Of a DNA stretch of 64,000 bases, positions 41 through 57,142 are shown piece by piece (within the stretch, counting starts at the first letter, position 1; each line of letters begins with the position of its first letter). The translations under genes and the position numbers were made by a program. Under the pieces are notes generated by a model. It did no database searches and was not told the origin of the DNA. It saw nothing but the letters and a program-made list of their open reading frames with translations. Source of the stretch: an uncultured Planctomycetales bacterium (lineage in GTDB: Bacteria > Omnitrophota > Gorgyraeia > Zapsychrales > GWA2-47-8); the NCBI GenBank assembly GCA_964499685.1, contig CAZCLW010000001.1, positions 119,859 through 183,858 on the forward strand. The letters run 5' to 3'.

Positions 41-3000
41 TTGAACCCGACCAAAACCCACGGCCGCAATCCATATCAATGGGTCGAACCTCAGGAGGGC
101 CGCAAGCGTCTCGGCCAGCATATTGAAGCCATACTTAAAGGCCGCGGTTCAGAGAAGACCGCCGGCCTTTTAAGACCGTTTAAAGTCCAGGCCAAGGCCC
201 AGTCCCGTGCGCCGCAAAACGGTTATATATTCATCGGCGCGGCGAATAAGAAAAATATTGTCATTAATTCAAGTCAATTTAAACCGGATTCATGGATCGA
301 AATAATCCCGATGTTCATTGATTCGAATGACCTCAGTAAAGGTGCTTATCTGTATTTTGTGACTGAGGATAAAAAGGTGCTGGAATATGAGTTCCATGCC
401 GACGGCAGATATGTCCGGCCCAGAAAGACCGACGATGAGAGAGCACAGGAAGACAGCCTGCAGGCCCTTCGCAATTATATTGAAGCCCTTATCAGCGGCC
501 GTCCTCTGACCGAAGCGGCATTGGCATTAAAGACATTTACGTTAAAGGCACGCAAACAGCAAGGCGCACGCGGCGGTTACGGCCAGCTCTACTTTGGTTA
601 TGTGGAAGGCCGCGCCGTCCTTATTACCTCCAAAAAATTCAAACCGGGCAAAGCGTTCGTCATCGAACCCGTCTTGATCGACCCTAAGGATGCTTCCAAA
701 GGTATCTATCTGCTTGTAAAGGTCTCCCGCAAAGAAGCGGTCCGTTATAATTTCAACAAAACCGGGGTTCCTTTCTTTACAGCTGTTGATCAGGAGGCCG
801 ATGAAAAGCAGCGCGGCAGCCAGGCCATCAAGAATTACATTGATGCGCTCTTAAGCGGAGAGGACCTCGCAGAGGCCGCCGAGGCTTTACTGGAATTCAA
901 AGTAAAGGTCCATAAGGACGCTGATACCGGAAGGATCGATCTTGGGCTATATCGGGGAGGTTTGATCCAATTGACCCGTCGGGAATTTGTGCCCAGGACA
1001 TTTGCCGTGATCAGGCCGGTCTTTGTCGATCCGCAAGACCACTCCAAGGGCGCTTTCTTTGAGATCATTCAGGAGGAGAAGAAATTTGTTTATGAGTTCA
1101 CAGCGCATCGTAGGCCGTACATTGAGGAGAAAAAATCCGATAAGGTCAAGGCATTGCGCGACAAGACCAAGCCGATCGTTGAATACGTCGCAGCTTTGGT
1201 CAAGCGGCAGAATTTACGGACAAAGACGGCGAATCTTACCGGATTCGATATGAAAGTCGGGTCGAACGGCCGGAAATCCAAGAAAGGTAAGCTTTATTTC
1301 GGTGCCTTTAAAGGGCGCTCAATTGCCATTCTGTCGAGCCGTCTTAAGCCGGAGACAACCGTCCGTATAGAACCTGTTCTGCATGATCCTCAAGATCTCA
1401 GTCTCGGAGTTTACTTGAAGGTCTTATTGCCGACCGGTGAAGATTTGGAATATGAGTTCTATAAAGAATTTGCGTATTTAAGAGTAAAATCGGATGCGCA
1501 GACGACGGCGTTAAGAAAGAACATTCAAAACATCCTTGATTATATCGACGCGCTTATCCGGAAGAAGAATTTGACCGTTTTTGTCGAAACCATGGCCTCC
1601 TTTACGATGCCGGTCGGTAAGCTGGACAAGGAAGGAAATTTCGGCAAGCTCTTTTTCGGTAAAGTCAGGGCCAATCGCATAGCTGCGATAGGCAATCAGC
1701 AATTAAAATATGGCACCAATGTTGTCGTCAACCCTGTCCAGGTCGATCCGAGTGATCCTTCCCGCGGCGTCGAGCTTCATATTATGCTGCCGGAAGGCAC
1801 AATTCTTGTTTACAAGATCAGCAAGACTCGCACACACTTCTTTGAACTCAAGAAGGATACGGTCAAGACCACCCGGCTCAGCCGGGGAAATGCCTTGGCG
1901 GATATCAAGAAACCAAATGTCGAATGGAGACGGGTACCGCTGACGATCAAGAAGGAGCTTGTTCAGGAATTGGCACGGCTGCTTGGCAAGCGTCCTTCCG
2001 AACTCATTATCAAGGATTTTGGCCGCAAGATTCCTTCCGTTGGCCGGACGCTTAACGGCTTGATCGACTCATACAGACAAGAAGGAGATGACCGCTTTGC
2101 CGCCGTCAGTCGATTGCAGGAAGATTTAGGGTTTACCCACAAGGTAACGGTCGAGGAATACCGGTGGGAAGAAAAATACCGGGACGAGGAGAAGGTCAAA
2201 GAAGCCTTAGACCTGAAAGACATTTCGCCAGCCGCTATGGAAGCCGTGGGTCTAAGCGGCGGTGTCAATAAGACGACGGAACGAAAGCTTTTTGCCGAAG
2301 TTAATAGAGGTAATGCGGCCGCGCGCGATGCCGCTTATCATTTATACCGCAATCTGGTCCCGGCCGCTTTGAGACGTATTGATAATGCTGTCGCCAATGC
2401 CAACGAAGGCGAATTTATCGCCATTGGTGACGCCGAACTTTTACGGCGTATCGATACATTCGGTCTGCGCCGAAGAAATTACAGGCTTTCGACCTATGCG
2501 TGGAAATCCATTACTAAGGTATTGCTGGACCATGCCAGAAAGTTCACGACTATTTCACTGGACAGCGCCATGGGTAAAGATGGGGATATGGCATGGAAGG
2601 ATATCGTTGTCAGCAGCCGTTCATTTACCAATAACGATGGGCACCGCCATAAACATCTAATACAGGAAGGCGGGTCCGATGTTGATGAAGCGGTCAAGCT
2701 TCTGGAAAAGAACCATGAGCCCAGCCGGAAGATCGAGGCCTTTATACTTCTTGCCCAGGGTGCGACGGTCGCCGATCTGGAAACAGAATATATTTTCGGT
2801 GATGAGTCTCTTCAGGCGATGCTGCGGCGCCAGATCAACATCATTCAGCACAATTCTCGCTGGGATAATACGGTGCTAAGAACGGCGCCAAAAGCCCATA
2901 AAGATCGCCATAAGCCTCGGAAGAATAAAGCCCCGGCCCTGCCGGTCAGCGATCCTGCCAAACCGCGTCCCGGAAAGACTGAAGCTGATGTCATTCAAGG

Positions 3001-6000
3001 TCTGCAAGAGCTTGCGGAAAAGGCTCTGGCGGGATGGAAAGCGGTCAGCGCAAAAGATCTGCCGAGTTTTGTCAAAGAGGTCCTGCAGTATTTCAAATAT
3101 ATCGGCGATGAGGTCCGTTATAAAAGACTGATGGCGCTGATCAGCACGAACCGTCTGATGATCGGCGATGATCATATCTTCTACGGCGCGAACGATTTTG
3201 ACGGAACAAACGAAGACACTTTCCGCATCTTTATTGCCCTTAACGATAATCCCGACCCTGCCGCAACCCTTATTCATGAATTAAACGGTGAAGATCACCA
3301 AGCCAATCTGGAAGCTGAACGACGCTTCCGCAATGTCGTTAAGAGCTCGTTAAATCCGGGCAAAACCATGTCCATGGGAAGTCCTTTCAGGGTTTATGAT
3401 CTTTCTCTTCCGATCCTCCTTGCCGGCCTGGGAATACCGTATATCTTGGCTTTATCCATGCCGGCCACAATTGTTTTGATTGTTATTGTCTTGATTGCCT
3501 TCTTAGCAGCCCTAAGTGATGCCGAAAATGTCGGAGACGTGATCGGAAAAACGATAGTTCTTTCAGTTGTTCTTCTGCTTATCGTTGCGGCGGCTTATTA
3601 TGTGGTCTGGCCTGTTGCGCTATTCGTTCTAAATCTCGCCTGGAGTGCGGTGTCATTTATCTTTACGATCATCGCGTATCCTTTTGTGGTCTGGTATGAC
3701 TTGTTTGTCATGTTTCAAGAAGAGCCGTACGGTTTCGGATGGCTAAAAGCAGCATTCATTGCTCTGGTAGCGGAAGGCGCTATTGTCGGTGTTATCAGTA
3801 AGGCGTTGACTTTGTTCTTTTCTTCAAAGGATAAAAAGGAAAAAGAAGAAGAGTTTGCGGAGGAAGATGCTATTTCATTATATGCCGTTATTTTTGGTAT
3901 CCCTGCGCTTGTCGGGCTTCCATTTATTATTTATGCGAATTGGGGCTCGATCCTTTCCAGTATAGGGATAGGAGCGGAATATTTCATTGGCTGGAATTTG
4001 CACTATTTGTTAGGTGCTCTATTGGTCATCGCCGCTGTTGGTCATATTTATAAGAAATTATCTCAAAATTATGATCCCAAAGATGTATCGACTATTATGT
4101 ACTTCCTGGCAGCTATTGTTGCGCCTGTGGGAGAAGAAATTGTCTTCAGGTGGCTGTTGTTTAATTTATCGATCTGGTTATGGATAGACTATTTCGGCCT
4201 TACACAAGAGTTTGTATATACCCTTCCCCTATTTGGGTACACCATTGATGGTATATCTCTCGGTCTCTTGATCGCTGTTCTTGCTAATGCCGAACTTTTT
4301 TATAAAGCACATGGTAGCGGTAAGTGGTTCCATCATTGGTTAATTGGAGTGGTTGCCTCATATTCTTATTTCAAGACCAACTCTTTGGTCGTTCCTATTG
4401 CAATGCATTTTATTTGGAATGCGACTGCCACAATCGTTGCGGTCCTGCTCAATGCGGTTGCACCTTTATCCATGGTCGATTTAAAAGGTATGTTGGGGTC
4501 TTCGGACGGGAAAGCCGTCGAGACAAAGAAAACCTCCTTCCCGCACGTTCTTATTCTCGGCAAGCCGGGCAGCGGCAAAAGCGAGGCGGGCAGGCGTCTG
4601 GCCCAGAAATACGGAGTTCCGTTCATTGATATCGGTGAAATTCTACGGCAAGAGCGGAATGCCCAAGCAAGACAAGAGAAAGTTCCTACCGAGAACGACT
4701 TTAAGCCCGGCATAGAGGCCTTAAAGGCCAGGCTGGCCGATTCGACATTGGTCCAAAGCGGTTTTGTCCTGGTGTGGGCGCCGCGCGATGAGGCTCAAGC
4801 TGAGTTCTTCACCGAATATCTAAGAAAGAACAAGATAGAAGACAGGTTGCTGGTATTTTGGATCCGGCTGCCTAACGCCGTGGCCAAAGAAAGAATACTT
4901 AAACGTGGATTGACTTCCGGCCGGACTGAAGACAAAGAGGCGGGTAAAGTTGCCCGCCGGCTGGCAAGGTTTTATCAATACGGGCACCCGGCGATCAAGC
5001 GAATGATGGAGCTCGCCGGATTCAAAGTGTTCTTTATTGAGGGGAAAAAGAGCGCTGACAAAGTATTCGTGTCCATGGTTAAAGCGGTGGACCGCCGTTT
5101 AGATAGGCAGCGCACTGAAGACCCAGTTCTTTTGGCCTTGGCCCAGATCGGCGAAAAGGAATTCCCGTCGTTCACTGAAGAAAAGTCCTCTCCCGAAACA
5201 TTCTTTATGCAAGCCTTAAAGGCTATTCATGAGTTGCTTAACGAACGCGCCCGGATTATGAGCGATCTCTTGCCGGCTTCCGCTTCTGCGGATGGACTGA
5301 AACGCTTCGGCGAAATTCTGCGCACTCATCAGTTGCCCGGCCTTGATGTCAAGGCTGTCTTGGATCAAATTTATGACAAAGCGGCCTTTATTGATCGCGA
5401 TGGGACTCGGCTGGAAGAGCCCGGGATGCTTCATTATGTAAAGATCGTTCAGGGTGCGGTCCGCCACTTCGACCAGTTCAAGGGCGACTTAGGATTGATC
5501 CAGAGAGCCGCCCGCACCATCTTCGATTATTACATTTTTTATCATTTAGCTCTGTTATCATTGCGGCTCTGGGACGATCCGGATAGTGCCGATAGGAAAT
5601 TGGACAAATTGCAAGGCCTGCTCGACCGGCTTCAAGGCCATGAAGGCAGCGGTCAGCAATTTACCGTGCATGCTGTTTCGCTGATTTCCTTCCCGATCGC
5701 CAAGCCCTCGCGCAATGAACAGCAATACATCGACCTCTACGGCCGTATCGCCGCTCTGGATCCCCGGCACCAGCTTCCGTTCCGCAAAATCCAGGCCGTC
5801 AATAACGGGCGGCATCTTCTGACGCAATTGACCGTCGCCGAGGAAAGTATCGTCCGTCAGGCCAATCGGGTGGATTATTTCATGATGCTCCATGATCTTG
5901 CGGCTTTGTTGAAAGTCTATGCTTCTCTCGGGCATCTTTCCATGCAGGACCATGCCAAACGGGAAGTCGTGGAAGGTATTCTTGCCATCCTTTCCGGAGA

Positions 6001-9000
6001 TATTGAAGCGTTTGTCGACGGCAGTATTTTCCGCGCCCTTCGGCCGTATAGTCCGCCCGAAGAAGTAGCGGTCTTTATTCAGGCTTTGGAAAGATTGCAA
6101 GAAATAACGAAAGAGGCGCTGATGCGCGATATGGAAGTATTGAACCCATCGACGCAGATCTTCTCACCGCTGGCGGAATTGATCATGATGCCGCATACGT
6201 TCCTGAATGCAATGGTCATGGCCTCGCTCTTCGAACGCGGACTCGAGGTTTTTGCTTATGACGATATTCACTTCAGCCGGGCTCAAGCTGTGGAAAATCA
6301 GCGCAGATTGGCGTGGGCCGAACGGGTCAATCCGTTGTGGCAAATGATCCAGGTCAGGGTCTTCCGCTATGATGTTAATACCGCACAGGATCTATTTGAT
6401 CAAACGCTTAATTACCTCCGGCACTCTTCTTCAGGTACCGTGACCGGTGCGTCTAAACCCGCAGTCGCCCATCTCTCCCTCGCCCAGATCGGCGAAGAGG
6501 AGTTCCCGCGGTTCAATCTGCTGCTTCGCTGGGTCCTTATGCTAAGCGGCGTCATCATGCGGCATGAGTTGGGCCATTTGATCGGCGCTATTCTATTCCA
6601 ACAGAAATTTAAGACTTCACTTAAGGAAGTCGTTTACACTGGCCGTATTACGGGAGTGCGCGGCCTTCCGCTCACCTTCGGGTTCCTGGCCAATCTCTTG
6701 ACCGCCACGGCCGCTTTCCTTCTCACGCTTTACTCTTATCCGTCTCATGGGCATCTGACCCTTGCCTTGTTTACCATCGGCACATTGGACTTCATAGCCG
6801 CTGTTGTGGAGCTGGTCGCCAAAGAAGGCGATCTTTATAAATACGCGCCGATCATCCGCGGCCGCCTGAAGCTCAGCGTCGGTTCCTTGCGCCGGATGCC
6901 GTATTTGGCGCATTGGCTGAAGATGGAGGAAGGGACTCTCTCCCGGCTGCTTTCCAGCCGCGATCCGAAAGACCTTAAGGAAATATTCAAGGTCATCGGC
7001 CGACGCGCCGGCCGCACCTACGGCGCCGATGGACTCCACGAAGTAAGCTGGCGCCTGGTGGATTATTTTGAATATCTGGAACGTGTCCAGGCCTCACCGT
7101 TTGCCAAAGTAAAGCCCTACAATCCGGAGAAGGAAAATAGCGCGGTCGAAGTGCAGCCGCTTGAAAAAGAATTCCGGACGAAGTTCGGCGAAAAATTCGT
7201 CTTTGAGCGGTATTGGAAAGTGATCCTGCGTATCGTCGAGGACAATCTCTCCCGCGGCCTGAGCCAAGAAGAATTCGCCGTCCTGCAGAGCTTTATCGCC
7301 CATAATCCGCTGATGGCCAATTATCTGTTCAACAGCTATCTCCTGAAAAACCAGGGGCTCTATGTGCCGCTGTGGATGTCTTACTCGGAGGGAGTGCGTT
7401 TCGGCAAACGCTGGAGAGAACTGCGTCGAAAGCATAAAGAAGCCATTCAGGCAGGCTTAAGAGGTATTTTGTCGACGAGAAAGATCGAGCAATATGCCAA
7501 GGGGATGATCGTTCCTTTGGAAGCGTATATGGAACATTCCAAATATCTGCAGCAGCAGTTTGCCGGCCGCAATTTCAGCGCCGGATTTTATCTGCAGTAT
7601 TTGGCCGAGACCGACTACTTCGACCTGGAAGCGACCGCGAGCCGCATCGAGGATTTATTGATCCTTATCCAAAAAGAGTCGCACCGCAAGAAATTCAGGG
7701 TCCTTCTGGCGGCCTATGACCGCTTGAGGGCCGTGCCCAGTATCGTCTTTGCCGCCGAGATGGTCAAATTCATCCTCGACCGGCAAGATCTTACTTTCGA
7801 GATCATCGGGCTGGATACGGATCCTCTGAATGTGTTGCAGGGCCGTGAAAAACTGGCCCGCTTCGGTATGGAAAATGCCGTGAGCCTCGTTGGGCCGGAC
7901 AATGTCCGCCTCGGCGAGATGGTCCGTAATCATGAAAGTATCGAGGCCAACGACCTGCGTGAATTGTTGTTCCAGACTGAACTGATCGAAAGCGGATTCG
8001 ACCTCATCATCTATTATGATCCGGGCCAATTGGTGGATCCGGGCCCGCCTTTGGCCAATACACGAAGGACGGCCGAGAATTTTGAATATGTCCTGAATCA
8101 AAACGGTTTATTGCAGCTCTTTGTCCGTGAATCGAAACTGCAAAAGAGCCTGGCGTTCCGTCTTTTGACACAGGCCGCCTGGATTCCGGTCCGTCAGGGT
8201 GTCGTCAGCGCTGTCCAGCCTACGGCGCGATGGGACCTTCCGTATAATCGGTATACCTTCGATAAGAAGGGTCTTATGGAGTTCAATGACCGGTTGTCCC
8301 TCCTCGGACAGGAGACAAACAAAGTGGGAGATCCCCATTACACAGCCGAACAGCTGGAGAATCTGGCTACATTGGGCGAGATAAAGCGCCGGATCGATAA
8401 CAGACGCCTGCGCACTGAGGCCGCCATTTCGGATTGGAACGGCGATAAAGCCCTTTGGTGGGAGAAGATCGTTATTGAATACCGCCGGGCCTTTACCGAA
8501 TACATCGCCCGCGGCGGGGAGCGGGACAGGTTTACCTTCGATGTCTTCCTCAATGGTGATGCTCTCTTTGCCGAATATAGAGAAGGACAGCCTTATCCTG
8601 ATGATCCATGGAGTGTCTTTAAGCTTCTTTCCGGCATGGACCCGAAAACAGGTGAAAAGATCGAGAATAAAGGGACCCCCGAAGGAATGCAGTTCCATTT
8701 GATCCTGGGTATGAACGAATATCTATTCCTGGCCGCCAAGATGGAGAATGCGATAGGCTTGCGGCTGATGCTGGGAGATAAATTCCGGCCCGGATTCGAG
8801 CGTCTGGGTGTTTCGGGCAACAACTTTGACGAAAGAAAACAAAGCTTTTTGAGCAATCCGGCCATCGATAGAATTTACCGCTGGATCCGTCAGAATGCGC
8901 ATTTGTTCAAGATCGGCGCCAACGGTACGTTATATATAAGCGGCGGTGCATCGATTGCCGTCAGCATGCAGAACTTTGACGAGACATTGTTCACCCAGTT

Positions 9001-12000
9001 GATGAGACTCGAGGAACATTTGCGCGAAGAAAAGAACGGACGCTTTGTTTACACGCTGACCAATGATCCGCATCTTCAGGCCATGGCCGGCTCCAAAGAA
9101 ACACTCGATTCCCAGTTCCGTCTTGGGCCGCGGCATCTGCACAGGCTGAGCACGCTCTTTTCATCGCCGTTCATTTGGCTCATTAATAACAGCCGGTTGA
9201 ACCGTGAGAACCTGCAGGGCGGCATCATCGGCGCCGGCGACGGTATGGTGACCATAGGACAAAAAGGCATCCGCTATTATACGCAGGCAGGATCCTCCGA
9301 AGGCCAGAAAAGCATAAAGAAAATTAAACTCCTCACAGGTGAGGAATTTGTGAAACAGTTGCACCAGCTGGTCGTTGAATTAAAGACCCTTGAGTATGAC
9401 CGGGGCCGCATGGACGAAGCCGCCAAGCGGCTCAGGCCGGGATTTGAAAGAGCGGTAACGTCTATTCTTAATCTGGCATCGGAGATCGGCCTCGGGCGTT
9501 ATAAATTGGGTACGCTGCGGGATAAGGTCCCGGAGAATATGAAATTCAAGATCCGCCGGGTCCTGGCCGGCCTGGGGCATTTCGTGTCGCCTGACAGTAC
9601 GCAGCGGCGAAAAGAGATCAGAGCGAAACGGCAGGCCAGATTGGATGAAGCCAAGCGGCGCCTTCAAAAATCAATAGACGCATTCGATATGGATGTAGTT
9701 ATCAAGGAATTGGAGGCCCTGGAAAAGGACCCGCGCAACGATGAGCGCATATTGGAAATGGGCGGTTCGTTTACGATAGAAGTCGAGATCAAGAACCGAA
9801 AGGGCATGCATTTGCGGCCGTCCATGATGGCCTTCACCCTCTTGGCCAGCTTTTTGGATCAAGTGACTGTGACCATAAAGAATGTCACTACCGGCAGCGA
9901 TGAGATAGACGGCCACACGCTGATGCAATTCCCGATGTTGGCGGCCAAAAAAGGCGACCGCCTTCGGGTTGTTATCGTGGCAAAGGATCCGCAGTACAAG
10001 CTGGAGATGTTGCAGGCAGCGGTTGCCTTAAAGATCCTTATTGAAGAAAGAATTTTCGGAGAAGTTGAGGGTCTTGAGAGGGAAGCCGAGGAGCTGTATA
10101 GCGCCAATCCAGAGGAGATCGTCAAAGAAGTTACGGCGTTCAGCGCTGATCAACTTTTTGAAAAACTGCAACCTCGGCCATCCGAAGGTCATGGTGAGCT
10201 CAAGACCGCATCCTGGGCCAGGGCGCCCTTAAACGGCCCGTTGCCGAGAAAACCCGGAATATATATCGATGCGGAGCGGACCATGCTCCTGCGCGATGAG
10301 GATATTATCGCTTTACGGCAGCAGGCAGAGGCGGCCTTGGCCAAGGAACCGTTGGCAAAAACCGTGACCCTTGACCTGCCGCGCGGCGGAGCGCTCAAAT
10401 TCTCCGTCTTCCATCTTGACCGGAAGATATTCCTGCTGCCTTTGAAGATCGCTTCCGACGGACGCTTAGGCGCGGACTTGGCCAGGGCCTTGGCCATGAC
10501 CGGCATCATGCTGTTCTATGATCTGTTCATTGTCCTTCCTGCTTCACATATCATCTCGCCGAATTTCTCAGATCACTTAGCTGCCAGTATCCCCGAACAT
10601 CAAATTATCGTTTTACACGATCGTCTGATACCGTTGATGCGCAAGCTCGACCGGATATTACCTGGCACCGGTTCGACTTTCCGTCAAGTTCTTCTGATGC
10701 ATGAATTGCGCCATGTCTTAAGATCGCTAGGACAAAGAGATGACGAAGAACATCATGAGCAGCTTGACCGCATGCAACTGAGGGTCTTATCGGTGTATGA
10801 GCAGTTTGATATTGGGCCATTAATGTCCTTGCTCTTGGAAGAAGGTGTCGTTGACGCGGAATTCAACCGACGGCTTGGTGCTGAGAATGCGGTCAATGTG
10901 AATCGTTTGCCGGAGCACATTGACATGGTAGAGATCATCCACGCGGATGAATTTTTCAAGGATTTGAGCCGATGGTTAGGTAAGAACGGGGATATTTCTT
11001 GGGATGGCGGAGAACGTTACGGAGTGGTCTGGGCCCGCCTTGAGTATGTTAAGAAGCAAGAATTTCATTCCATCCAGGTAATGGCGGAAGACGACTGGAA
11101 AGGCCGGTTTGCCGAAATGGCGATTTTGGACAAAAACCGCGGCGTCTGGTATCCGGAAAGAGGCGCTTTCGGTCAGCTTATTCTCAGCACTTACCGTTAT
11201 CATGACGGCCGCATCGCTGTATTGATAGAAGAAATTCAGCCTGACCATTACCGCAAACTGAGCCATACCCGCCGCCGGCATCTGGATATGTGGCGGCAAA
11301 AGGCGGTTCAAAAGATCGCGGAGTGGGTGGTTGCCAACGGCTATGAGCTTATCGCCGCCGGGCCGGAAATGATAAGGTCCGTTTACCGCAAGAAAAACGG
11401 AAAGACCTTATCGGATTTTGAAGTACGGAAAAATTATATGGAGCCTTATGATCCCGACTTGTGGAAAACACGACGGTTCATTACGCCGCACTTCCCGGAA
11501 TACGAAGCATTGTACGTATTCAGGAATGGACATCATCGGCCCGGTACCGCCAACGGGGACCGGCAGCCGCTCGCCATAACAACAATACCAACGATGGCCC
11601 ATTCTATCTCCTCTTCCGGCATGTTGGCGGTCGCCCAACGCTTTAAAGATGACCCGTCCATTGCCAGCCACTTCAGGATATTAGGCGATGCGCTGAAAGT
11701 GCTTGAGGAATATATCGCTTCAAGCGGCAAAGTGACAGGGCCGCCGATTGTGGCTTATAGAACCACAGACGGACAAGTCATCTGGAACTTAACCACAGAA
11801 AAAATCTTCGAGATTCTACTGGAACGCGGGCATAACAACGGCTTCATCCGCTTCGTCATCGATCAAATCAAATTGCATGAATCAAGAGAGACGGAAGCCG
11901 CCGCCATCAAAGCCCAAGTGGATGAAATGGCCGCTTGGTACGGCCGTCATCTTTCCGATAAGCGCCGTCAGGCCTTGTCCAGGTCCAGCAAAAGCCTTGC

Positions 12001-15000
12001 CCGCCTTGTTGCCTTCCGCCGGACTTATGAATATTTAAGCGCCGCTCTCCTCATTGAGCCAGAAGATCCTCAATGCACCGAAAATCTTTCCACTGCCGCG
12101 TTCTATCTTGCCAAAACGCGCACGCATCTGGCCTATATCGCGGGTATTGTTGATCTCCTGGAGAGAAGCTTCGGTCTGGATACAGAAAACCTCAGCGCCG
12201 AGCGTAAACGTCTCATGCTCGCCGCCGTATATTCCATCGGTATGAAAAAGGCCATTGTCCCGGCGCAGGAAATAATAACTATCCTTGAACAGGTCATGAG
12301 GAGCCGGTTCGACCGCCTGGAAGATGCGGCCTTGCGCGATAAGATGCTGGTTGCCGTCTATAACGTAGCCATGAAAAAAGCACAAAGCTCCCTGATGACG
12401 GTCATTGAATATTTCTGGGAACAATTCGGTATCGATATCGGCCAAGAGAAGGATGCGGCTTTGAGAGATCAAGCCATCATCGCCATGTATACGATCGCTT
12501 CATGGAAAGCGGAAGATCTGTTGCAGCTCATCACAGGCATTCTTAAAGAACGGATAGACACACCGCCCGATACTCTTCCCGTTTTAGCCAGATTGAAGCT
12601 TGTCAGATATATTTATCGCTTCATTCAGGATAACCGCAAAGAATTTAATGCGATAAATGATGCCGAGTCGAAGAGGGCACGCGCGAAGGAATTGATGGAC
12701 CCATCCGCTATCGCGAAGATCCTGAACCCTGCGCCGGTCAGGAAAGCGGTTGTCGGCGTAAAACGGCCGAAGGCCAAAAGACCGGCCCATGTCCCGATGC
12801 GCTATAAGACCGTCGATGTGATCAAGCTTCAAAGCCGACAGGAGCTGCTCAGTAAACAGATTTACAAAGAACTCAGGGATGAGGAAGGCGTTGTCCGTAG
12901 TACGGCATCCTATGTGTATCGGATATTTGAGATCAATTTGGATTCGGATATCCTGGTTTTATTGATGTTGCAGGAAGTGTTCGGCGACAGGATCAAGATC
13001 GAGAGCCTTAAATATAAACGGGACCTGGCCGGAGAAGGAAGCTTTTATCTGGGCGTGGTTGAGGAAGAACGCGTCGATCCTGTTTCGTATGAGGAATATC
13101 TGGTGATCGAGCCGATCGCGCTCTTTTTCGCCCACGAACCGACACGCACCCTGCTTTACGCCCAGATGCAGCATTGGGATGCATTGATGAGCTGGCAGGA
13201 CAATGATGCGCGGACTTTAACGGAATTGCTCCATGAAAAATTATTCTGGCCGCAACAACACAATGTTTTCGTGAACGGGCGTCAATATGATGTGAGCTAC
13301 AGCTATGTGGATATAGAGGATAGACCCGTATCCCTCGAATCGGATGCGCGCTTTTGGGCTGTCCTGCATGATGTGAGCGTCGGGTTCACCAAAGATTCCG
13401 GACTTTCTAACGATGACATAAATGGCGGCCGGTTGTTGGGCCTGTCCTGGCCGCTGTATCCGTTTATTTTCGCCTCAATGATTGATTCCCCGCAGGCCTT
13501 GATGCAGTTATTCGCTATGGCGGCATTAGCGATCTTGCTCCTTTTGGGCTACTCGGTGTATAGGCACAAAAATAGCCCGATAGTCATTAACAGAGGACGC
13601 GGCTCCATTGATATGGGGCCGGAGCATCCCATTGCCGATGAGCATGTGCGGATGATGGACCATCTCAGTGCTTATGAGCTCGCCGGATTGACCAAGGGAT
13701 TGCCGGTGGTCATCCTTAATTTTGATCCGCACCATGATAAATATGTCTCGGCGGCGAGCGATTTCCATAGTGCCGGATCGCATAACTGGGCGTATTTGGC
13801 GGAATTGGAAAAGCGCGCTATCGTGATCACCGTTATCGTCGCTGATGGAAAAGAATCCCGCGGCGGCTTTATAGGTAAGAATGGAGAATGGAAAGAGCCG
13901 CGTGGTACGGTCAAGGCGATTGATTACCGGCCCATTACGGCAGAAAACTATACGATCCTGCCTGAACTGAAAAATGTCCGTGTCGCCGCGGGCGGCCGCA
14001 TGTATTCTTTTGCCGATTATCCCGGATTGGTCGTTATCAATGTCGATTATGATTTCTTCAGCTTAAAGCCGAGACAGGGAAGAAAAGGCGACAGGATCAT
14101 TGACCGCAAAGGCTATCATCTCTCCGAAGGGGACGTCGCCGCTCAATTTGAATATCTGGAGCAATATCTGCTTCGGCAGAAGATCCGGGCTGATGATGTC
14201 GTCGGTTTTGTCTCGCCGAGATATTTGAACAGACAGCATGAGGACTTTCATCCCGCCTGGGTGCCGATGGTCGGGAAGCATTTTCTGAAATTCCGTAGGG
14301 CTATGCTCCATAAGGCGCCTCCGGCGGTCCAGCATATATCCGGCGTCAGACAGCTGTTTCTTGCGCTTGCTTTTAGCGCTTTGTCCATGTTGTCTCTCAG
14401 TCTTCCCGGGTGCTCGATCCCGCCTCAACCTTCGGAAACACCGAAGGTGCACGAGGTCATTTTCTTGTCGCCGGAAGAAAGAGTCCGAAGTCTTCTGCAG
14501 GGGATCCCCGGGAACAACAATAGCGATCAGCTCGTCGACATAACAGGAAGATTGGTGGACTTCGGCGACAGGGCCCTGGAACCTTTGATCCAGGCCCTTG
14601 ACCATGAGCATGAAAAGGTGCGCCAAGTGGCCATAACGGCTTTGGCCGAGATCAGCAGTGAACGGGCACAACAGGCATTAGTGAACGCCGTTTCTAATGA
14701 AAAGATCGCGTCCAATGAAGACAACAGGCTTGCCTTGAGCCGGGTCATCGAAGACAAGATACTGCCGGCCGCTGTCGAGCCATTGCTTGAGATCTTGCGG
14801 AATTCAGGCAACAGTAATTTTGTGGCTGCCGACATCTTAAGCCGCAGTAATGATGCGCGGATCATCGAACCTTTCTTAGGCCTCTTGAAAGATGACAATT
14901 CCAGCAACAGGCTTCAAGGAACGGCTGTGTATGGATTGACCGCCTTCCAAGACCGGCGCATTACTACCGCCTTATTGCACATCGTGGATACGGCCGACAT

Positions 15001-18000
15001 CGCGCATTTGAAAATTAAGGAAGGCCAGGCTGATATAGAGGACCGCAATAGTTACCGGCTTTACATGACCCTTCTTAATCTCGATGCCCTCAGGGTCGAA
15101 CAAGATGAAGCCCTGCGGGTGATCCAGTCCATCATGCCTTTATTGGCCAACGAGCAACTGCCTGAAGTTTATGCCGTTCCCGCCTTTAAGGTATTGGCCA
15201 GCATCGTCACAAACCATCCCCAACAATTTGCCGATCATCCGCAAACAGACGTTCTTGGCCCCGAAGCGGTCAGCCGCACGGTCCGCCGTATCGCCGGGAC
15301 CGGCGTGCTGGAGAAAGATTACAGTGAATTTCCCATGCATGAAAAAACAGCTGCCGTCAGGATCATTTCCGCACTGGGGACATTCGAAGAATTTAAGACG
15401 TATTTGGCCAAAGATGCGGTCGGCTTGCATGATCCCCATCAGGACATCAGGACCGAAGCTTATAAAGGTTTGAGACGTTTCGGTAAAGATGCCCTGCCTT
15501 TATGGCTCGCCGGATTAAGGGATACCGAATTAAAAGTCTGTGACCTGTGCGTGAACGCTCTTATAGCCATCGGCAAGGAAGTTGAGCCGCATGTCTGGGC
15601 GATCATAACCGATCCGGCGGAGACCATACAGGCAAAAGCCCAAGCCTTCAGGATCATCGTTGAATTCGAGCTTGGGGCCTCCGACGAGGCGACAAAATTT
15701 ATTGAGTCTTTATCGCATCCTCTGCCTTTCGATCTCATCCGGGCTTTGGGCCGGACAGGTAATACCGCTGCCGTTCCGACCTTGATCGAAGTCATGAAGA
15801 ATAAGGACGGCCATTACGGCAATATAGACTGGCGCGAAGAGGCCGCGAAAGGATTAGGCAGGCTTAATGATGCCCGCGCGGTCGAGCCGCTGGTCAGGTA
15901 TCTGTTCGATGTCGGCAGTTTTGAAAGAAGCGCCGCGCGTCATGCCCTGACCCAGCTGTCGCGGCTTACCGCCCAGGAGATCGTTCCCGGCGTTTTTGAT
16001 AAAGCCCAATTAAAGGTCCTCAACACCAAGCGGGCCCGTCAGGTCCTGAATATCTTGCATGAAAGCGTTCCGACCGTCGATTATTCCATTGAATATATCG
16101 GACAAATGCTCACCCAGAACGATAACGAACAGCTTCGCGACGCGCTGGACCTGTTCAAGAAAAGTAAAGAGCTTAACATTCTTTATCCGTTCCGGTTCTG
16201 GGACGGGGATATGGACCTGGACCTTATGCGGCTCGTTATCCAGAACAGGCTCGATCATCCGGCTGAAAAAGATGAGCGGCCGCTGGCTGTCATCATTGTC
16301 CCGCGCAGCGACTGGAATGCTGCGTTTGACAGCGATGCCCTGAGAAAAACGATCAAGGAATTAAATAAGTCTTATTATGTTCTTTATTATGAGGTTTCGA
16401 ACGAAGATGAGATGATCAGAAACTTCCTGGCGGCAACGGAAAAGAAAAAAGCCTCTGTCCTGCTTTTGGGCGGCCATGCGAACATGTCCAGCATGTCCTT
16501 CGGTGCGGAAGATCCGGCGCAGGCGGCGGTCAAAGAAGAAGATGAATGTCTCGTCATTTCCGTCTCAGATAAGGACAAATTGCAAAATGCCGGGATTTCC
16601 GTCCGTCTGGAAGACGGAGGGATCGTCATTCTCGGCGCCTGCAGTTCAGGCAAGGGTAAAGGAAGGGAGCAGAACCTGGCCAACATGTGGCGGGAAATAT
16701 TCCCGCAGGCCCGGGGTATCTGGTCGCCTGTCGAGCCCACACCGTTACCGGATTTCAAGTTTAACGCCGATGGGAAAGTGGAGGAGGTCAAATATCCTTT
16801 CAGCGACACCTATATCGGCTGGATCGATCAAATGATCGAAAACGGCGTTATCCAGCCTGACTTTATTAAAGAGGAGAAGCGAAGCGGTGCCCTTGCTTCG
16901 ATGTATCCGGGAGAAAGATCGACCTTGTGGCCGTTCTTGCTCATGGCCAGCGCGGGCGTCGTGATGATGATGTCCTCGAGCTTCAACCGGCGCAAAGAGG
17001 ATGATTTTGATCTGGAAGGGGATGTCAATGACCGGCCGTCCCTGACTTCGCCTTTCGCCATCCCGCACGTAAATAAAGCGCCCGATGCCAAACGGATCTT
17101 GTTGGAAAAGTTATTGGCAGCCTACGGTCTGCAGCCTCTAAGCGAGAATCTTGGCAGAGAGCACATTATGGTCATCCTGGCGGAATGCAATTGCGACCAA
17201 GGTTGGGTGGTTTTCAAGACCCCGCGTTTCCGTGCGGGCGAGAAAGAATTTGAAGCCGAGAACCATTTGATCGCTTATCTTATCGGCCAGGGTGTTCCGG
17301 CTGCCGCTGCTCTTAGAAATAAAGAAGGCAAGATCGGGACGGATATCGAGGGAACAATCTATGTCGCTTATCCGTATATTCAAGGACGCCATGTCGAGTT
17401 AGGCGTTATGTCGCCTGAAGAAAGACGCAGCGCCGCGCAGGCCTTGGCCCGGCTTCATAATGCAACCGCCAAGTATCAGTCCTTGCCGGAGTTGGGAGCG
17501 GATGAATTCCGTAACGGACTTTTGCATAAAGGCATATGGACCATGGGAGAACTGGTCGCCGGTTTACCGTTATCCGAAAGGCCCAAGAGCGCGCTGGAAG
17601 AATTTGTGGAAGAAAATGTTGTTGAACTGATTGAAGAGCTGACCCGTCTTGAACGGGAATTGCCGTCGGAAGTTTATACGACGCTCCCCAGTCAGGTCAC
17701 CCATGGGGACCTTCATCCGGGCAATATCCTGTTCCGCGAAGAGAAAGTGGCCGGCATCCTCGATTGGGAGTTGGCGCACTACGGGCCGCGCCTCGGCGAT
17801 GTGGCTGGTCCCATGTCCTACAGCCGGCCCGAGGACGGGACTTTGCTGGACCTGAATGCGGTCCGTACCTTTATTACCGCCTATCAGGAAGCTGCCGAGC
17901 GAAAACTGACCAGAAGAGAGCTTGAGCTTCTTCCGGTCTTTTACAGACGGGATTTTCTCGGCACTATCCTTTATCTGGTCCAGTTCCATCTTAGGGATGA

Positions 18001-21000
18001 TTATCAAGGAAATTTTGTGAAAGCGGTGCTGGCCAGTTTGCGCAAAATAGACCGGCTTGATTGGGATAGCTTGCATGATCTTTCCGCGGATTCCCGCGCT
18101 CCTCTGGCTGTCAGCTGGCTGTGGCTGCCGGTCATCACATTGCTCCGGCGCGTTATGGGTGACCGGGCCATTGCGGTCACCATCGGTATTATTGAAGAAG
18201 TGCTGCTCTCGGCGCTGGTCGGTTATGTCTTCTACCCGCTTTTCGGCCGGGTCTATGCCCACTTAATGCATTATCCGCCGGGCATTTATGCGCCTGGCTC
18301 TTCGCTTTGGGCGGCCGGCTTTGCATCCGCGGCAGGAATTCTGCTTGCCATTTTATTGCATACCCAAAAGACCTACAGATTGGTCGATGGAAAATTGATC
18401 CTCAGCGAAAAAGAAGTCGGGCGGCCTCATTATCCTTTACGCATGCTGGAAATTTTTGCCGAAGAAAGGGCCCCTAAGGACCTCAAAGTCCTGGCCAAAA
18501 TTTTCAGTATTATCCGCATTGTTTCGGGCGGCTTTCTCTATATATTAGGCCCCATCCCGTCGATCTTGACCGCGGCCCTGATGCACGGCCTGTATAACGG
18601 CTTGATCGCGCCTGTTTTTGGCGCGCCCCTGGCCATGGCGGACATAGTAGATATCGGAATAATCTCCGGTACTGTTGATGAGCGTCTGGCCGAGATCGCG
18701 AAGGTCGGTCGTGACCGGTCCAAGTTCGAAGATGTGAAGGCTGTGGGCCATGTGATCATCGCAGGGACCTTGCCCAAGTCGGGGAATCTGGATATCGGGA
18801 AACGTCTTGGAAAATTCCCGCTGCATGGTGGAGAAAAATATGAATTGGAAATGGCCGGCGGCTTCCCGGTCAGGATTACTTTCAACCAAAGCGGCCGGAT
18901 ATATCCGTTTTATCGTATCTGGAATGCCCGGACGGGTGAATTGATCGATACACATACCGGAAAGATGACACGCGCGCGTATGCTGAACTACGGAGATATT
19001 GTCACGGAAACACAATTGAACGAAGCAGGGAAACTCTCGCTGGGCGGCGGGCGGCCACGGGTCAATGGCCTTATGCCAAGGCCACAAAAGGCCTGGGCCA
19101 GGATAGAAAAACATGCCGAAGAAAGAGTTATGCTCTATGTGCATGGGGGGCTGGTTGTTAAGATCTGGTCGATGACTTCTGATCTTAATGAAGACTTTGT
19201 TCTGGTCTGGGATAAAAAACAGCGCCGATTTATCTCCTCCTATCTAAATTATTTGCCCTCCGACGAATATGCCCTGGTGACATCCGCACATGAGTTTTAT
19301 AAAGAACGCCTGACCAAATACGGTTATCTGACGTTTGGCGGCCGCGAAAATGCCGTTTATTTCGGTGAGGAGTATGCTTACGGAAGGGTCATCGTCCGCA
19401 AAGTCCGTTCGGCCGCTGCCGGGCGTATTTTATTCGGCGAAGCGGTTGCGCTTAAAGATGGTTCGACCCGGACTTTGCGTCCTGTGTATCGCGTCAATCC
19501 TGGAGCGGCGGAGGATTCCTTTGAACGCGGTGAATTGATCGAAGGGGTGAATGATCTTGGCCGGAATTTGCAAAATGAATGGAAGGATTTTATCGTAGGT
19601 GAGACGGTTTTAACGGACAGCGCGCTCTATCAGGCGGGTTATCTTGGACGGTTCTCCTACTTCCCGGATGCGGTCGTGGAATTGAAGTTTATCGACGGAC
19701 AGGCGCGCTATGTGCGGTTCATCCGTGATGCACAAGGAAATCCCGTTACCGATATCCATGGCCGCGATCTCGTCGTTGATCTTCGCCGGGATATTTTGGA
19801 GCAAATGAAGCAGCATTCAAAGATTTATTTTGAACGGAAGATCCATAAGGCCCAAGAGCTGCTTGTCCTGCCGGGACAAAGGCAAAACCTGGTTGAAGCC
19901 CGCCGCATGCTGACGCGCCGCGTACTAGAACGCGTTCCGGCCGGAACGGAGATCGCAGAAGCCGCCGACGCTGTTCATCAAGCCATGGGTGCAAAATTGC
20001 ATTCCCTGCGGGTAAGTCAGGGCACTTATTGGGCTGTTACCAGGGCCGGTGCCGCCCTGGAGAGAGCACAGGTCTCCGTTCAAAGCGGAAATCATGCCAA
20101 GGCCGTCCGTCTGGCGCGCGATCTTCTGGAAAGGATCAGGCGGTTCAAAAAACTTAACCCGTCGGTAAACGGAGAATTTGATGATATTGTCGCGGCGGCC
20201 GAATTTATTCGTCGGACAGCTCTGGCCGGCGTTGAGAATGGACGAAAGGTGGAAGTTGATTCCATCCATACGATTTATAGAGAAAAGCCGGTGTATACCC
20301 AGCCGGAAGAGGAAAGGCTGTGGAGCCTGCTCGCGGACGGCCAGAACCATGCCCTGCTGCCATTGACGGATATATATATTTGGGAGATCAAACAGATCGC
20401 CAAAGAATTCACCTGGGAATACAGCGATTTTTATGAAGATCTCGTACATGAAGGCATTGTGTACTTCTTGGAAACCGCCGGAACATACGGTCTGTGGCAG
20501 AGAGAAAGCCTGCGTGAGCTCATTTTTGCCCGATTGCGTCAGAGGTTTGATGAATTAAGAAAAGAGCGCAACCGTATCATCTACCGGACCAGATCTTTGC
20601 AGGCGCCGCTGGGCGGAAATCAGGACGGAAAACCGTTCACTCTGGAATCTTTACTTTACACAGAAGATGACATTGACACGACGGAAACTGTCGAAACTTC
20701 GTCGAGATCGATGTCTTTGATAAAGCCGGCCGTCTTCACGGTCTTTTTGGCCGGATTATTAACGACCGGCGCGAAGGCGCAAGCGTTGGGTAATGATCTT
20801 GCCGTGCAATCGCAGGGGGCAGATTGGCCGGCCATATGGCACGCCTTGGGCGCGAGCGCTATCTTATTGATCGTATTTGTTGCACAAATGATCCTCGTTG
20901 CTTTATGGCACGAGATCGGCCATGCGCTCCCTACGCTCTTATTCGGCGGAAAAACAAAGATCAGGCTCACGTGGAGCGGCGCCGAGACCGTGCGTGATAT

Positions 21001-24000
21001 CGATCCGCGCGTATTCGACGGATGGAGGGGATGGAAAGGCTTCTTGATGGACGCCGGCGGCCCGCTCTTTACGTTCTCCCTCATTCCATTGAGCATTTGG
21101 ATGATGACGTTGGAATGGGGCGCCCTGGCTTTCCCGGTGGAACTTATCCTTTGGGCTGTCTTGCTGGAGAATGTGATGATCGGTTTTATGAATGCCGTAC
21201 CGGGAGTGTTATCGGAAGAAACCCACGGCAAGACCGACGGGAACAGAATAGCCGACCGCATTCTGGAGAGGCGTATCCAGCGCTCCTTTAAGCGTCTGGA
21301 GCGCGCAGGGAAACTGAAAGGCGCTCTTATTTCTTTGGATCTGGGTCCTCATCTCTCCCTGATTCGCGCCAGAGGATTCGTTGCGGTTGCGCAGGCTTTG
21401 GCCTATGTACGGTCAGGGGTCAAGGTCCGCGCCGGGCCGGCGGAATTTTTTGCCCGGAATCCCGGTAAATACGTTGTCAGCTATAAAGGTACCCTATACA
21501 TCACTCCTGAATTCCAAGACAATGTCCACTTGTTAAGGTTCCTGATCATCCGGGAACTGACAAGCCTTTTAGGTTTCCCTAAACATTTCAAAGACCAGTT
21601 TTATAATGTCATCAGATCGGGCCATCCCGATGAAGAGATCCAATTGTGGGCGGAGCGCCTGGCGATCGCGCCAAAGCCGCCCGCGAGATCACCGCTCCTG
21701 CAGCTCGATTCCACGCGGACGATCGGATATAAGTTCTTCGCCCGTTATTTCGGCTGGCATGCGCCTCCGGCATGGCTCATTGATATTGTCTTTACCGCCG
21801 CGTATGAGCTTCCGCAGACCTTCCGCCCCATCCATTTCTATCTTAAACACGATAGCCGCACACTGTCGCAAAAAATTTCCCGCGCCGCCGGTATCGCCGG
21901 AATTTTGACCGGAATGCTGGCGGCGGGCATCCTTTTCCATTGGATGATCATGCCATTGGCTAATGTGTTCGTTCACGCTTTCTATAATATGTTCTTCGCC
22001 GCTAACTTATCGCTGCCGAAGCGGCCCTCCAAGGCCGAGCGGGAATGGGAGACCAGGCCTTTGGACATGATCATGGCCTTTTTCCGCGATATCATGACGG
22101 TCAATTTTGACGCCATTGAAGTGATCACCGCGCGCAAAGATAATCCCGAGGATACCAAGATCAAACGGCGTTTCACGACGGTCAGAAAGCGCCTGGAACG
22201 CCTGCATCAGCGCCTGAGCGATTGGAAGACAAGTACAAATTTGTCCTTGGCCCGCAATGCCCGTCCGGAACGAGATCAGATCTTACGTGACCGCCTGGCC
22301 TTGATCGAAAAATCCCTGCAAAGGTTCGAAAAGGCCGTTGAATTTTTCCAGAAAGGTAACGGCCCTGTGGTCGGCCAGATCCTTTTCGCCGTCACCGGTA
22401 CGCTCATGAACGAGTATGAAAGAATTTCAGACCAGCAGATCGCGCGTTCCCGCCAATACCGCGCCCGGCAGAACCTGGATTATCCGACGGGACGGGGACG
22501 CATTTGGAAAGACAGGCGCACGCGTCAATTCATCCTCTCCAAATGGGGCCATCGCCAGGTCGAGCCGGCCAAAGGCGTTAAAGTGACCCGCCGCGTTCTA
22601 CAGGAGATCCTCTTCGATACGTATTGGGAAATGCTGCGCTCTTTGGATCACACCTTTGATTCCCAATTCAAGAACCGGGACCACATAAGCAATATCCTGA
22701 AAGCGTTCAAGGCGCTCAGCGACCGATTGTCCTCTCAGTCGGGAAGAAAGCTTTCCGATGATCTGGTCAAAGAAATTTCAGCGCAATTGGAAGCCCTTCA
22801 AAAAATGGTATCCGGTCCGCGTGTCATCATTGAATTAAAATTGGCCCAATCGGCAGTGGCGACCGCACAATATTTATTCGAACGAGGCCGGTGGCGCTTC
22901 AGCCTTAAGATCATCTTGCTGGCGCAGCGGTTTTTTGCCAAGCGCCTACAGGAGATCGGCTCGATGATCGGCCGGAACGAAGACGGTAAGCTGGCCGTCA
23001 TCCGCAACATGATAGCGGAAAGAAACCGTTATATCCTGGCCCGCATCGCAGACATCAGGGCAGGGAACCGGAAAGCGGCTTTAGGATTGGCCAGTTATCT
23101 GAAAAACAATAAAGACCCGGATCTGGCCGGCGTGTACACATTGATCGTTGCGGCCAGGCAGGCGCAGGAGCAAGGCCGCCATGAAGACGCCCGGCGGTAT
23201 TTGCTCTGGGCCGAGCGCCGGGTCATCATCTCCACCCGTTTGCATGAATTTATGGCCGATTACCGCGATCGGGTCAAGGACTTGAGGCTTTCCGGTACGG
23301 AAGAAGCTGAGGCCTCGGCCAAAGCCTTCCGCGAGGCTTTTGAAGGATTATTCAAGGAATACCAAGACGAAAAACGCCATAAAAAACTTTGGGCTTACCG
23401 TCTTTATCAGGCGGTATTCGTTTCTTTGCGCATCAACAGTCCGGCCGATCCCCAAAAACGCGTTTCCAATCCGCTGTTTGAATTGTTCTCCGTCTTTATC
23501 GGTATCCTTGAGCTCAAAGAGATCAAAGATATTTTAAGGGCTTCAAGACTGGTCAGTAAGCGCCGTACACCGCAACTTTATAAATTCTTGGAGCAGATGC
23601 AGAAGAAATATTCTCAGATAAGCCAACTATCAAAAGAGGAAAGGCATCGCCTGATCGTCCTCATCGCCCAAGACCGTCAAAAGGAAGCAGGCGGACTGTT
23701 CGGTCCGCGCGTTGACTTCCTGGCGGAAGTCCGGAAAGCGGCGGTCCTAGCCGGGCTGACCAATGGTTTTAACGGCGTTCCGCAGGACGCCTCTTCCAAC
23801 GGAGAAGACAGGGAAGCGGTCATGCGGAAGATCGAAGAACTCGGCGGACTTATTGCCATCGCCGTTCTTTACGGAGGATTTATCGAGCGCGAGGAGATCG
23901 TGAAATTGTACGATGTGGAACGAATGGTCCGTCGGTTGCAGGAACGCGTTTATTTCCTGCGCGGCCCGCCCGAATTGGACGTTGTCAATGTGGTCGAAAC

Positions 24001-53046: not shown

Positions 53047-53460
53047 CTATTGAAATCCCGCAAAAACACCGGTGCCGAACTTTTCCAGTACTTCATCCAA
53101 CACTTGCACAAAACAGATCTGGCTTGTGTTATCGCCCCCGTCAAGAGTATTCCGTGTGGCGCAGAGGGTATAGCTGGTGCCGTCGGAGGCAATATCAATG
53201 CTGTAGGTAAAGTGAGAGTTCGGCATATTGAGATCGGGCGTAAGAAAACTCTGACTGATATCGCAATTATAAACTGCCGAGCCGGAAAGCCCATGGCAAT
53301 GTTCAAAGCTGCGCCGTAATTGCATCATTATGTTGAGCGCCTCGGCGCTCCGGGAATATTCGATCATACGGTACATGCGCGGCAGGCCCAACGCAGCCAG
53401 GACGCCCACGATGATAATGACAATAATGACTTCCAAAAGAGTAAAAGCTTTCTTATTCAT
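53047..53460 (-). CDS. Divergent prepilin-type pilin-like protein, paralog 4 (about 137 aa from MNKKAFTLLE; the ORF extends to 53487).
   Basis: MNKKAFTLLEVIIVIIIVGVLAALGLPRMYRMIEYSRSAEALNIMMQL.... It lacks the C-terminal YEGMEW motif of paralogs 1-3. TGATG coupling at 53460. Its stop at 53047 is 2 nt from the giant gene's stop (convergent). Confidence 0.7.
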   Translation of the reverse strand: MNKKAFTLLEVIIVIIIVGVLAALGLPRMYRMIEYSRSAEALNIMMQLRRSFEHCHGLSGSAVYNCDISQSFLTPDLNMPNSHFTYSIDIASDGTSYTLCATRNTLDGGDNTSQICFVQVLDEVLEKFGTGVFAGFQ

Positions 53461-57048: not shown

Positions 57049-57142
57049 GCATTGAAGAACAAAATATTCATGTTGGGTGTCCTGGTGCTGGCCGCACTCT
57101 TCGGCGGGATTTTTTTACCCCTCGATCAAAGCGAGGATTTTA

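Follow-up and report, generated by a model that had tools for sequence, protein, structure and literature searches.

Predicted protease modules of three mechanistic classes within a giant multi-enzyme membrane protein resembling those of Candidatus Omnitrophota

For the giant proteins of Candidatus Omnitrophota, self-cleavage by embedded C39 and S8 peptidases has already been proposed, as have predatory roles (West-Roberts et al. 2023, 10.1101/2023.11.21.568195), and whether such proteins are cleaved is a question raised both there and by Nielsen & Lui 2026 (10.64898/2026.06.07.730766). The text of neither paper mentions CPBP, CAAX or Rce1 proteases, M50 peptidases, CHAT, or DUF4347. CPBP proteases are defined by three motifs, EExxxR, FxxxH, and HxxxN/D, carried in separate hydrophobic helices (PMC6588880). 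Tce1 and Tce2 (DUF4347) are putative cysteine proteases folded like the cysteine protease domain of TcdB; the Tce1 dyad, His186/Cys240, is 54 residues apart, and Tce2 toxicity is abolished by mutating its predicted active site (PMC13323088). Here we describe a 64,000-nucleotide stretch (the window; positions 119,859 to 183,858 of contig CAZCLW010000001.1, assembly GCA_964499685.1) from an uncultured Planctomycetales bacterium that GTDB places in the Omnitrophota. A single uninterrupted open reading frame (ORF) in the window codes for a giant multi-enzyme protein that is embedded in the membrane and resembles those reported from Candidatus Omnitrophota, and from its sequence we recognize five protease-like modules in three mechanistic classes: two CPBP modules, two M50-like modules, and one soluble His/Cys domain.

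The original prediction, drawn from the letters of the window, had listed motifs of three protease classes in one protein and had suggested either autoprocessing into separate modules or action on a host or partner. All of the motifs lie in one reading frame (ORF 41..53044), each within 14 nt of where it had been placed, and the three-class claim holds with two corrections: the M50-like label of the first HExxH site is a matter of resemblance only, and the His/Cys domain is not CHAT proper. Support from hidden Markov models (HMMs) is strong for CPBP module 1 and sub-threshold for M50 and CHAT, and CPBP module 2 has no match at all. The motifs were expected to lie inside hydrophobic segments or at their ends (Kyte-Doolittle mean over 19 residues, threshold 1.6), and this was borne out for both CPBP modules and for the HEIGH site; the helix preceding the HELGH site reaches only 1.32. 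The giant ORF and its modules are given below, with residues numbered as aa = (nt-41)/3+1.

41..53044, forward strand: giant ORF of 17,667 aa, a multi-enzyme protein with many hydrophobic segments (Pfam domains and hydrophobicity scan)
3392..4477 (aa 1118-1479), forward strand: cluster of hydrophobic helices ending in CPBP module 1 (hydrophobicity scan)
4091-4423 (aa 1351-1461), forward strand: CPBP module 1 (CPBP1), Rce1-like match (Pfam PF02517)
6485..6853 (aa 2149-2271), forward strand: HExxH module 1 (HExxH1), HELGH followed by two hydrophobic helices, with NxxP lost and GD (D2264) kept
16214..16810 (aa 5392-5590), forward strand: soluble His/Cys domain, with DWNAAF at 16310-16327, H5479 at 16475-16477, D5510 at 16568-16570, and C5534 at 16640-16642
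18092..18640 (aa 6018-6200), forward strand: CPBP module 2 (CPBP2), divergent, with E6052/E6053, H6107, and HGLYN and lacking the Arg of EExxxR
18716..20680 (aa 6226-6880), forward strand: conserved unannotated domain between CPBP2 and the second M50-like module, with 56 representative homologues
20831..21265 (aa 6931-7075), forward strand: HExxH module 2 (HExxH2), a helix ending in HEIGH, then DPRVFDG...GGPLFTF and NAVPG...TDG

Between them, the five modules carry the residues required for three kinds of peptide-bond hydrolysis. Because short motifs are expected in 17,667 residues, we weighed the very improbable reading that the weaker ones are chance matches in a long hydrophobic sequence, with the N-terminal part of CPBP2 being instead a sigma-70 region-4-like helix-turn-helix. 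The protease motifs exceed chance, since HExxH occurs four times in the giant protein against 0.81 expected from shuffles (P=0.0095), and C5534, one of only 15 Cys among the 17,667 residues (0.085%), is invariant in 12 sequences. The number of CPBP motif triplets counted by regular expression is indistinguishable from shuffles. Two more HExxH sites stand at aa 4733 and at window 10700-10714 (aa 3554-3558, LLMHELRHVL), the latter ~50 residues beyond the hydrophobic segment at aa 3480-3505 and lacking a Pfam or NCBIfam family match. The Cys of the giant protein include pairs at 5167/5170, 5716/5718, and 12276/12279. A PADLOC search found nothing.

The CPBP/Abi motifs of CPBP1 are where they had been claimed, between 4133 and 4420: EEIVFR at nt 4133-4150 (aa 1365-1370; E1365/E1366/R1370), FYKAH at nt 4298-4312 (aa 1420-1424; H1424), and HFIWN at nt 4406-4420 (aa 1456-1460; H1456/N1460). 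These correspond to EExxxR, FxxxH, and HxxxN/D and lie in separate helices with hydrophobicities of 1.67-1.91. The module matches PF02517 with E=2.9e-10 and 40.7 bits, above the cut-off of 22.4, and NCBIfam MroQ with E=2.8e-5, yet it falls far below the MroQ equivalog cut-off. On family match and motifs together, we assign CPBP1 as a bona fide member of the CPBP/Rce1-like family. It is, by its sequence, also a very divergent one, and a search of 5.8 billion sequences returned no homologues at E<=0.01.

The second HExxH site had been placed in a transmembrane segment at 20901; it is present 8 nt further on as HEIGH (nt 20909-20923; H6957, E6958, H6961), directly after a helix of hydrophobicity 2.55. 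DPRVFDG...GGPLFTF follows at nt 21002-21076, and the M50-like NxxP...DG that had been proposed for this site is confirmed as NAVPG...TDG (nt 21191-21241; N7051, P7054, D7066-G7067), where a helix of hydrophobicity 1.89 ends. HExxH2 combines an HExxH at a transmembrane helix with the later Asp of NxxP...DG, the latter with a 7-residue insertion. It has three sub-threshold Pfam matches to the M50 family, all on the expected parts of the profiles; these include Peptidase_M50B (PF13398; E=0.029, 14.5 bits, cut-off 26) on the HExxH helix and Peptidase_M50 (PF02163; E=0.065, 13.0 bits, cut-off 27.2) at profile positions 160-201, the NxxP..DG region. The only match in a phmmer search of Protein Data Bank (PDB) sequences is Aquifex RseP (9j82, E=0.07), in which DPRVFDGWRGWKGFLMDAGGPLFTF aligns with DPRAFSTKKPWQKILIALGGPLFNF.

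HExxH1 and HExxH2 match one another by BLASTP (E=0.002) and are colinear over ~120 residues with 29% identity. A profile built from the two modules matches only 9j82 (E=7.1e-4) and its active-site E-to-Q mutant (E=0.0048) in the PDB; the match to 9j82 comprises two colinear stretches, the HExxH helix and the GGPLF region, in that order, and the mutant chain scores lower than the wild type. All M50 and CHAT Pfam matches are sub-threshold (E=0.02-0.07), as would be expected if they arose by chance, but the profile match (E=7e-4) singles out a site-2 protease. These comparisons support HExxH2 as an M50/site-2-protease-like module that is nearly complete.

HExxH1 is at exactly the position that had been given for an HExxH in a transmembrane segment (HELGH, nt 6563-6577; H2175, E2176, H2179), although the preceding helix is weakly hydrophobic. 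Its match to Pfam Peptidase_M50 (E=0.04) covers profile positions 3-30, and where NxxP should align it reads AAVVELVAKEGD, with both the N and the P lost, so that HExxH is present without NxxP..DG. No homologues were found at database-wide thresholds. Because HExxH1 keeps HELGH and GD, loses the Asn and Pro, and lacks detectable homologues, it is best called a degenerate copy, and its M50-like assignment derives from its resemblance to HExxH2.

The pair that had been described as a CHAT-like HG...C dyad at 16461/16626 is a genuine His-then-Cys pair, each residue lying 14 nt downstream (16475/16640). The window reads LLLGGH(5479)A and ILGAC(5534)SSGKGKG, and relatives read GGHG where the window has GGHA. 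The first homologue that we identified is a standalone protein of 336 aa consisting of DUF4116 repeats and the domain (P0001); a metagenome scan yielded 12 loci with the domain. In an alignment of 12 sequences, including the window and P0001, with 20-35% identity, DWNxAF, H5479, C5534, and G5537 are invariant, and P5421, G5478, D5510, and S5535 are nearly so. H5479 and C5534 are 55 residues apart, in the His-then-Cys order of caspase-type enzymes (MEROPS clan CD), where the His follows one strand and the Cys a later one.

Pfam scans of the family members found DUF4347 in three, CHAT in three, and caspase (Peptidase_C14) in one. The window domain matches CHAT (PF12770) with E=0.019 (14.9 bits, cut-off 24), and two relatives match the same part of that profile (E=0.19 and 0.096). 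One relative (L013) exceeds the DUF4347 (PF14252) cut-off when its 190-aa domain is isolated (25.5 bits against 24.6, E=1.2e-5) and falls below it as the whole 1,450-aa ORF (21.6 bits); DUF4347 matches in two others (L007 and L008) have E=0.047 and 0.11. The window domain itself does not match DUF4347, and the link runs through the family alignment. We therefore treat the domain as a candidate His-then-Cys protease, putatively nearest DUF4347/Tce and distinct from CHAT proper.

Several other assignments of the His/Cys domain were considered and rejected. An alpha/beta-hydrolase with a Cys nucleophile would have a conserved His or acid after the Cys, and there is none; the lack of an invariant His after C5534 argues against the hydrolase triad, and the position two residues ahead of the Cys varies among the members. 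CSSGKGK could be read as a phosphatase-type CxxGxxR loop, but it is found only in the window and P0001, with Lys in place of Arg, and neither residue is present in the other ten members. A Walker A loop is incomplete and not conserved. The 12-sequence profile matched only designed TIM barrels in the PDB, which we take to be spurious, and the L013 sequence had no match there.

Family members typically carry the His/Cys domain at the C-terminal end of 450-1450-aa proteins, behind DUF4116 or HEAT repeats, and HEAT repeats precede it in the window too. It is internal in two further very long ORFs that extend past the ends of their loci, one of >4068 aa (L005 1-12204) and one of >2682 aa (L014 1276-9321). 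The first of these also carries a methyltransferase domain. This defines a small unnamed family (DWNGAF...GGHG...SCSTG) related to the DUF4347/Tce effectors.

A degenerate second CPBP copy had been predicted at 18100-18650, and a module is indeed present at 18092-18640 with its catalytic residues kept, although it has no HMM support. E6052/E6053 (nt 18194-18199), H6107 (nt 18359-18361), and HGLYN (nt 18584-18598; H6182, N6186) lie in segments with hydrophobicities of 1.6-2.0. Similar modules, recovered via the neighboring domain, are found in the large proteins P0006 (one copy) and P0011 (two copies), and neither CPBP2 nor these three homologous modules has a Pfam or NCBIfam match at E<=10. 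Similarly, CPBP2 has no BLASTP match to CPBP1, hhalign of the CPBP2 family against CPBP1 gives a probability of 0.1, and a structure model of CPBP2 has no Foldseek match in the PDB. The four CPBP2-type modules share 24-32% identity, and E6052, E6053, H6107, H6182, and N6186 are invariant among them; these constitute the CPBP catalytic set, each in a hydrophobic helix, with the Arg of EExxxR missing. CPBP2 is thus probably a CPBP-fold variant with predicted activity rather than a demonstrated family member. P0011 also has a Pfam-significant canonical CPBP module (E=2.7e-6), so the combination of canonical and variant modules in one giant protein recurs, and this HMM-invisible variant extends to two further large proteins, P0006 and P0011.

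The PDB matches of the CPBP2 family profile are limited to weak ones to sigma-factor region 4 (E=1.2-1.4), as a chance origin of its motifs would have it, but Pfam does not find Sigma70_r4 in CPBP2 even at E<=10. Moreover, the motif residues are the ones that are invariant in the family alignments. For CPBP1, HExxH2, and the His/Cys family, chance matching can largely be dismissed. An unlikely alternative is that the divergent modules (CPBP2, HExxH1, and possibly the His/Cys domain) are inactive relics acting as anchors, scaffolds, or binding modules, like APH-1 and SpdC in the CPBP fold. HExxH1, with its lost Asn and Pro, would suit such a role; however, relics usually lose their catalytic residues, whereas the E-E/H/H-N set is invariant in the four CPBP2-type modules, and the His and Cys are invariant across the 12 diverged His/Cys sequences, in a protein otherwise nearly free of Cys.

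The domain between CPBP2 and HExxH2 is ~400 aa long, with ~100-aa repeats after it (aa 6742-6877), and has no Pfam family match. In a search of 1.84 billion representative sequences with aa 6000-7199 as the query, only this middle domain was matched, CPBP2 and HExxH2 finding nothing; its 56 representative homologues have a best E of 4e-126, and many are 2,000-7,640 aa long. Both of the relatives with a source name are from Candidatus Omnitrophota, and the domain adjoins CPBP2-like modules in the window protein and in P0011 alike. One relative (P0004) carries a sigma-70 family annotation.

Along the rest of the giant protein, Pfam identifies a patchwork of unrelated enzyme domains, all on the forward strand, and the hydrophobicity scan shows dozens of clustered transmembrane-like segments.

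aa 1503-1653, forward strand: adenylate-kinase-like P-loop domain
aa 3246-3328, forward strand: HPr domain
aa 4842-4885 and 5233-5303, forward strand: HEAT repeats
aa 5724-5950, forward strand: APH-type kinase
within the giant ORF, forward strand: GDE_C glycosidase, a strong match (E=2e-100)
within the giant ORF, forward strand: methyltransferases, alpha/beta hydrolase, GT2, Pkinase-like, and Sigma70_r4 domains

We suggest that the most likely role of the protease modules is maturation of the giant protein itself, to which we give a probability of about 0.4; that the modules are catalytically active and that the giant protein is their substrate are both plausible. The intramembrane modules would cut in or beside neighboring transmembrane linkers and the Cys domain would cut soluble linkers, and the combined cuts would free the kinase, HPr, methyltransferase, and glycoside-processing modules or alter their arrangement. 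Self-processing is favored because the same protease class recurs along one polypeptide, both in the window and in P0011, and one copy would be enough for a foreign substrate. It is also favored by the position of the modules between enzyme domains and hydrophobic segments; the stretch aa 5392-7075 holds one module of each class. The autoprocessing of giant toxins by C80 domains, which divides them into modules, argues in the same direction, as does the fusion of the His/Cys family, in every case, to larger proteins or its inclusion in giant ORFs. Finally, self-cleavage has precedent as a proposal for the Omnitrophota giants (10.1101/2023.11.21.568195).

Several observations weigh against self-processing by five working proteases. 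HExxH1 lacks the NxxP signature and follows a helix with a hydrophobicity of only 1.32. No Pfam family matches the window His/Cys domain above threshold, and a two-sequence AlphaFold model of it has a pLDDT of 51, with generic Rossmann-like matches apart from Tce1. The usual substrates of CPBP and M50 enzymes are separate proteins, among them anti-sigma factors, prenylated proteins, and peptide precursors.

It is accordingly possible, if on the unlikely side, that the proteases are active and cut other proteins, either the cell's own (secreted, pilin-like, or membrane-tethered regulators) or those of prey or host, the giant protein serving only as a membrane scaffold. The CPBP and M50 enzymes known so far cleave substrates in trans (Rce1; MroQ; myxosortase, PMC11980579; RseP, which cuts anti-sigma factors), Tce2 is delivered as a toxin (PMC13323088), and the predatory roles proposed for Omnitrophota giants (10.1101/2023.11.21.568195) would fit prey substrates. 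Potential partners are also at hand in the Sigma70_r4 domain with a hydrophobic segment elsewhere in the giant protein (aa 13386-13424) and in three pilin-like genes downstream. On the other hand, substrates in trans do not need several copies of one class per polypeptide, as in the window and P0011, no candidate substrate motif was found, and intramembrane active sites would be unable to reach a prey cell.

The fullest form of self-processing, in which a bacterial polyprotein with its own three-mechanism processing kit divides one product, 17,700 aa or longer, into separate enzymes, is in our view quite doubtful; if true, it would be the counterpart, in a cell, of the way viral polyproteins mature and MARTX and TcdB toxins process themselves. 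With candidate proteases named and mutable residues at hand (E1365, E6052, H6957/E6958, and C5534), the question of whether the protein is a single molecule or is cleaved becomes testable on expressible sub-segments.

The giant gene may be longer still: window bases 2-41 are stop-free in its frame, and with the frame open back to the start of the window, the gene may begin upstream and code for more than 17,667 aa. Duplication within the protein is confined to ~120-aa repeats at aa 16-650 and a handful of short pairs. The ~120-aa repeats (window 86-1990) form ~5 tandem copies with 28-32% identity and have no family match; a ~47-50-residue repeat at aa 13484-13530 and 14256-14305 is 52% identical. 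The Sigma70 region-4 helix-turn-helix (window 40196-40312, aa 13386-13424) matches above cut-off with E=4e-6 and is followed by a transmembrane-like segment at aa 13504-13522; aa 13386-13522 is possibly a membrane-tethered regulator and, as such, a conceivable substrate of the site-2-type modules. Two related (E=1e-8) alpha/beta-hydrolase modules lie at window 25031-25384 (aa 8331-8448) and 35498-36274 (aa 11820-12078). The second matches Hydrolase_4 (serine aminopeptidase S33) above the Pfam cut-off (E=3.4e-7), and both have weak Peptidase_S9 matches; with these modules, the giant protein may have a fourth class of hydrolase or peptidase.

Directly downstream of the giant gene are three consecutive small pilin-like genes on the reverse strand (window 53460-55002), with the prokaryotic N-terminal methylation motif. 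Also nearby are a gene for a protein-L-isoaspartate O-methyltransferase, a protein-repair enzyme (window 57052-57774, forward strand; E=4e-62), and, after it, a DUF4139 gene (window 57841-59295). Pfam scans of the window did not detect SecA-DEAD, C39, or dockerin domains. Run SRR10807893 contains a fragment of the contig.

The window protein can be compared with four described systems. CPBP/Rce1-like proteases (PF02517; Rce1 4CAD, MroQ, and myxosortase, with APH-1 and SpdC as fold relatives) are free proteins of ~250 aa, whereas here they are embedded in a 17.7k-aa polypeptide, and module 2 has no Arg in its EExxxR equivalent and escapes the family HMM. With site-2 proteases (MEROPS M50; RseP, Aquifex aq_1964 9J82; PF02163, PF13398), the M50-like modules share the order seen in RseP: HExxH at the end of a transmembrane helix, GG..K, DPxxF...GGPLFxF, and Asn/Pro...Asp-Gly in a later helix. 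They differ in having no PDZ or CBS domains and Pfam scores below threshold, and module 1 lacks the N and P. The canonical N-to-D spacing is 8 in RseP and in the M. jannaschii enzyme; relative to this, HExxH2 has 15 residues, with seven extra between NxxP and DG.

The His/Cys domain is closest to DUF4347/Tce and to the C80 domains of TcdA/TcdB and MARTX (PMC13323088). Its dyad spacing of 55 residues compares with 54 in Tce1/Tce2, but the window sequence is below threshold for the DUF4347, CHAT, and caspase models, and the family has its own invariant DWNGAF motif. Finally, with the Omnitrophota giants (10.1101/2023.11.21.568195; 10.64898/2026.06.07.730766) the window shares an ORF of >10,000 aa, many transmembrane segments, unrelated enzymes tiled with HEAT repeats, and pilin or secretion-type genes nearby. 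The embedded peptidases named in those giants are C39, S8, and signal peptidase II, whereas the window protein carries predicted CPBP, M50-like, and His/Cys modules.

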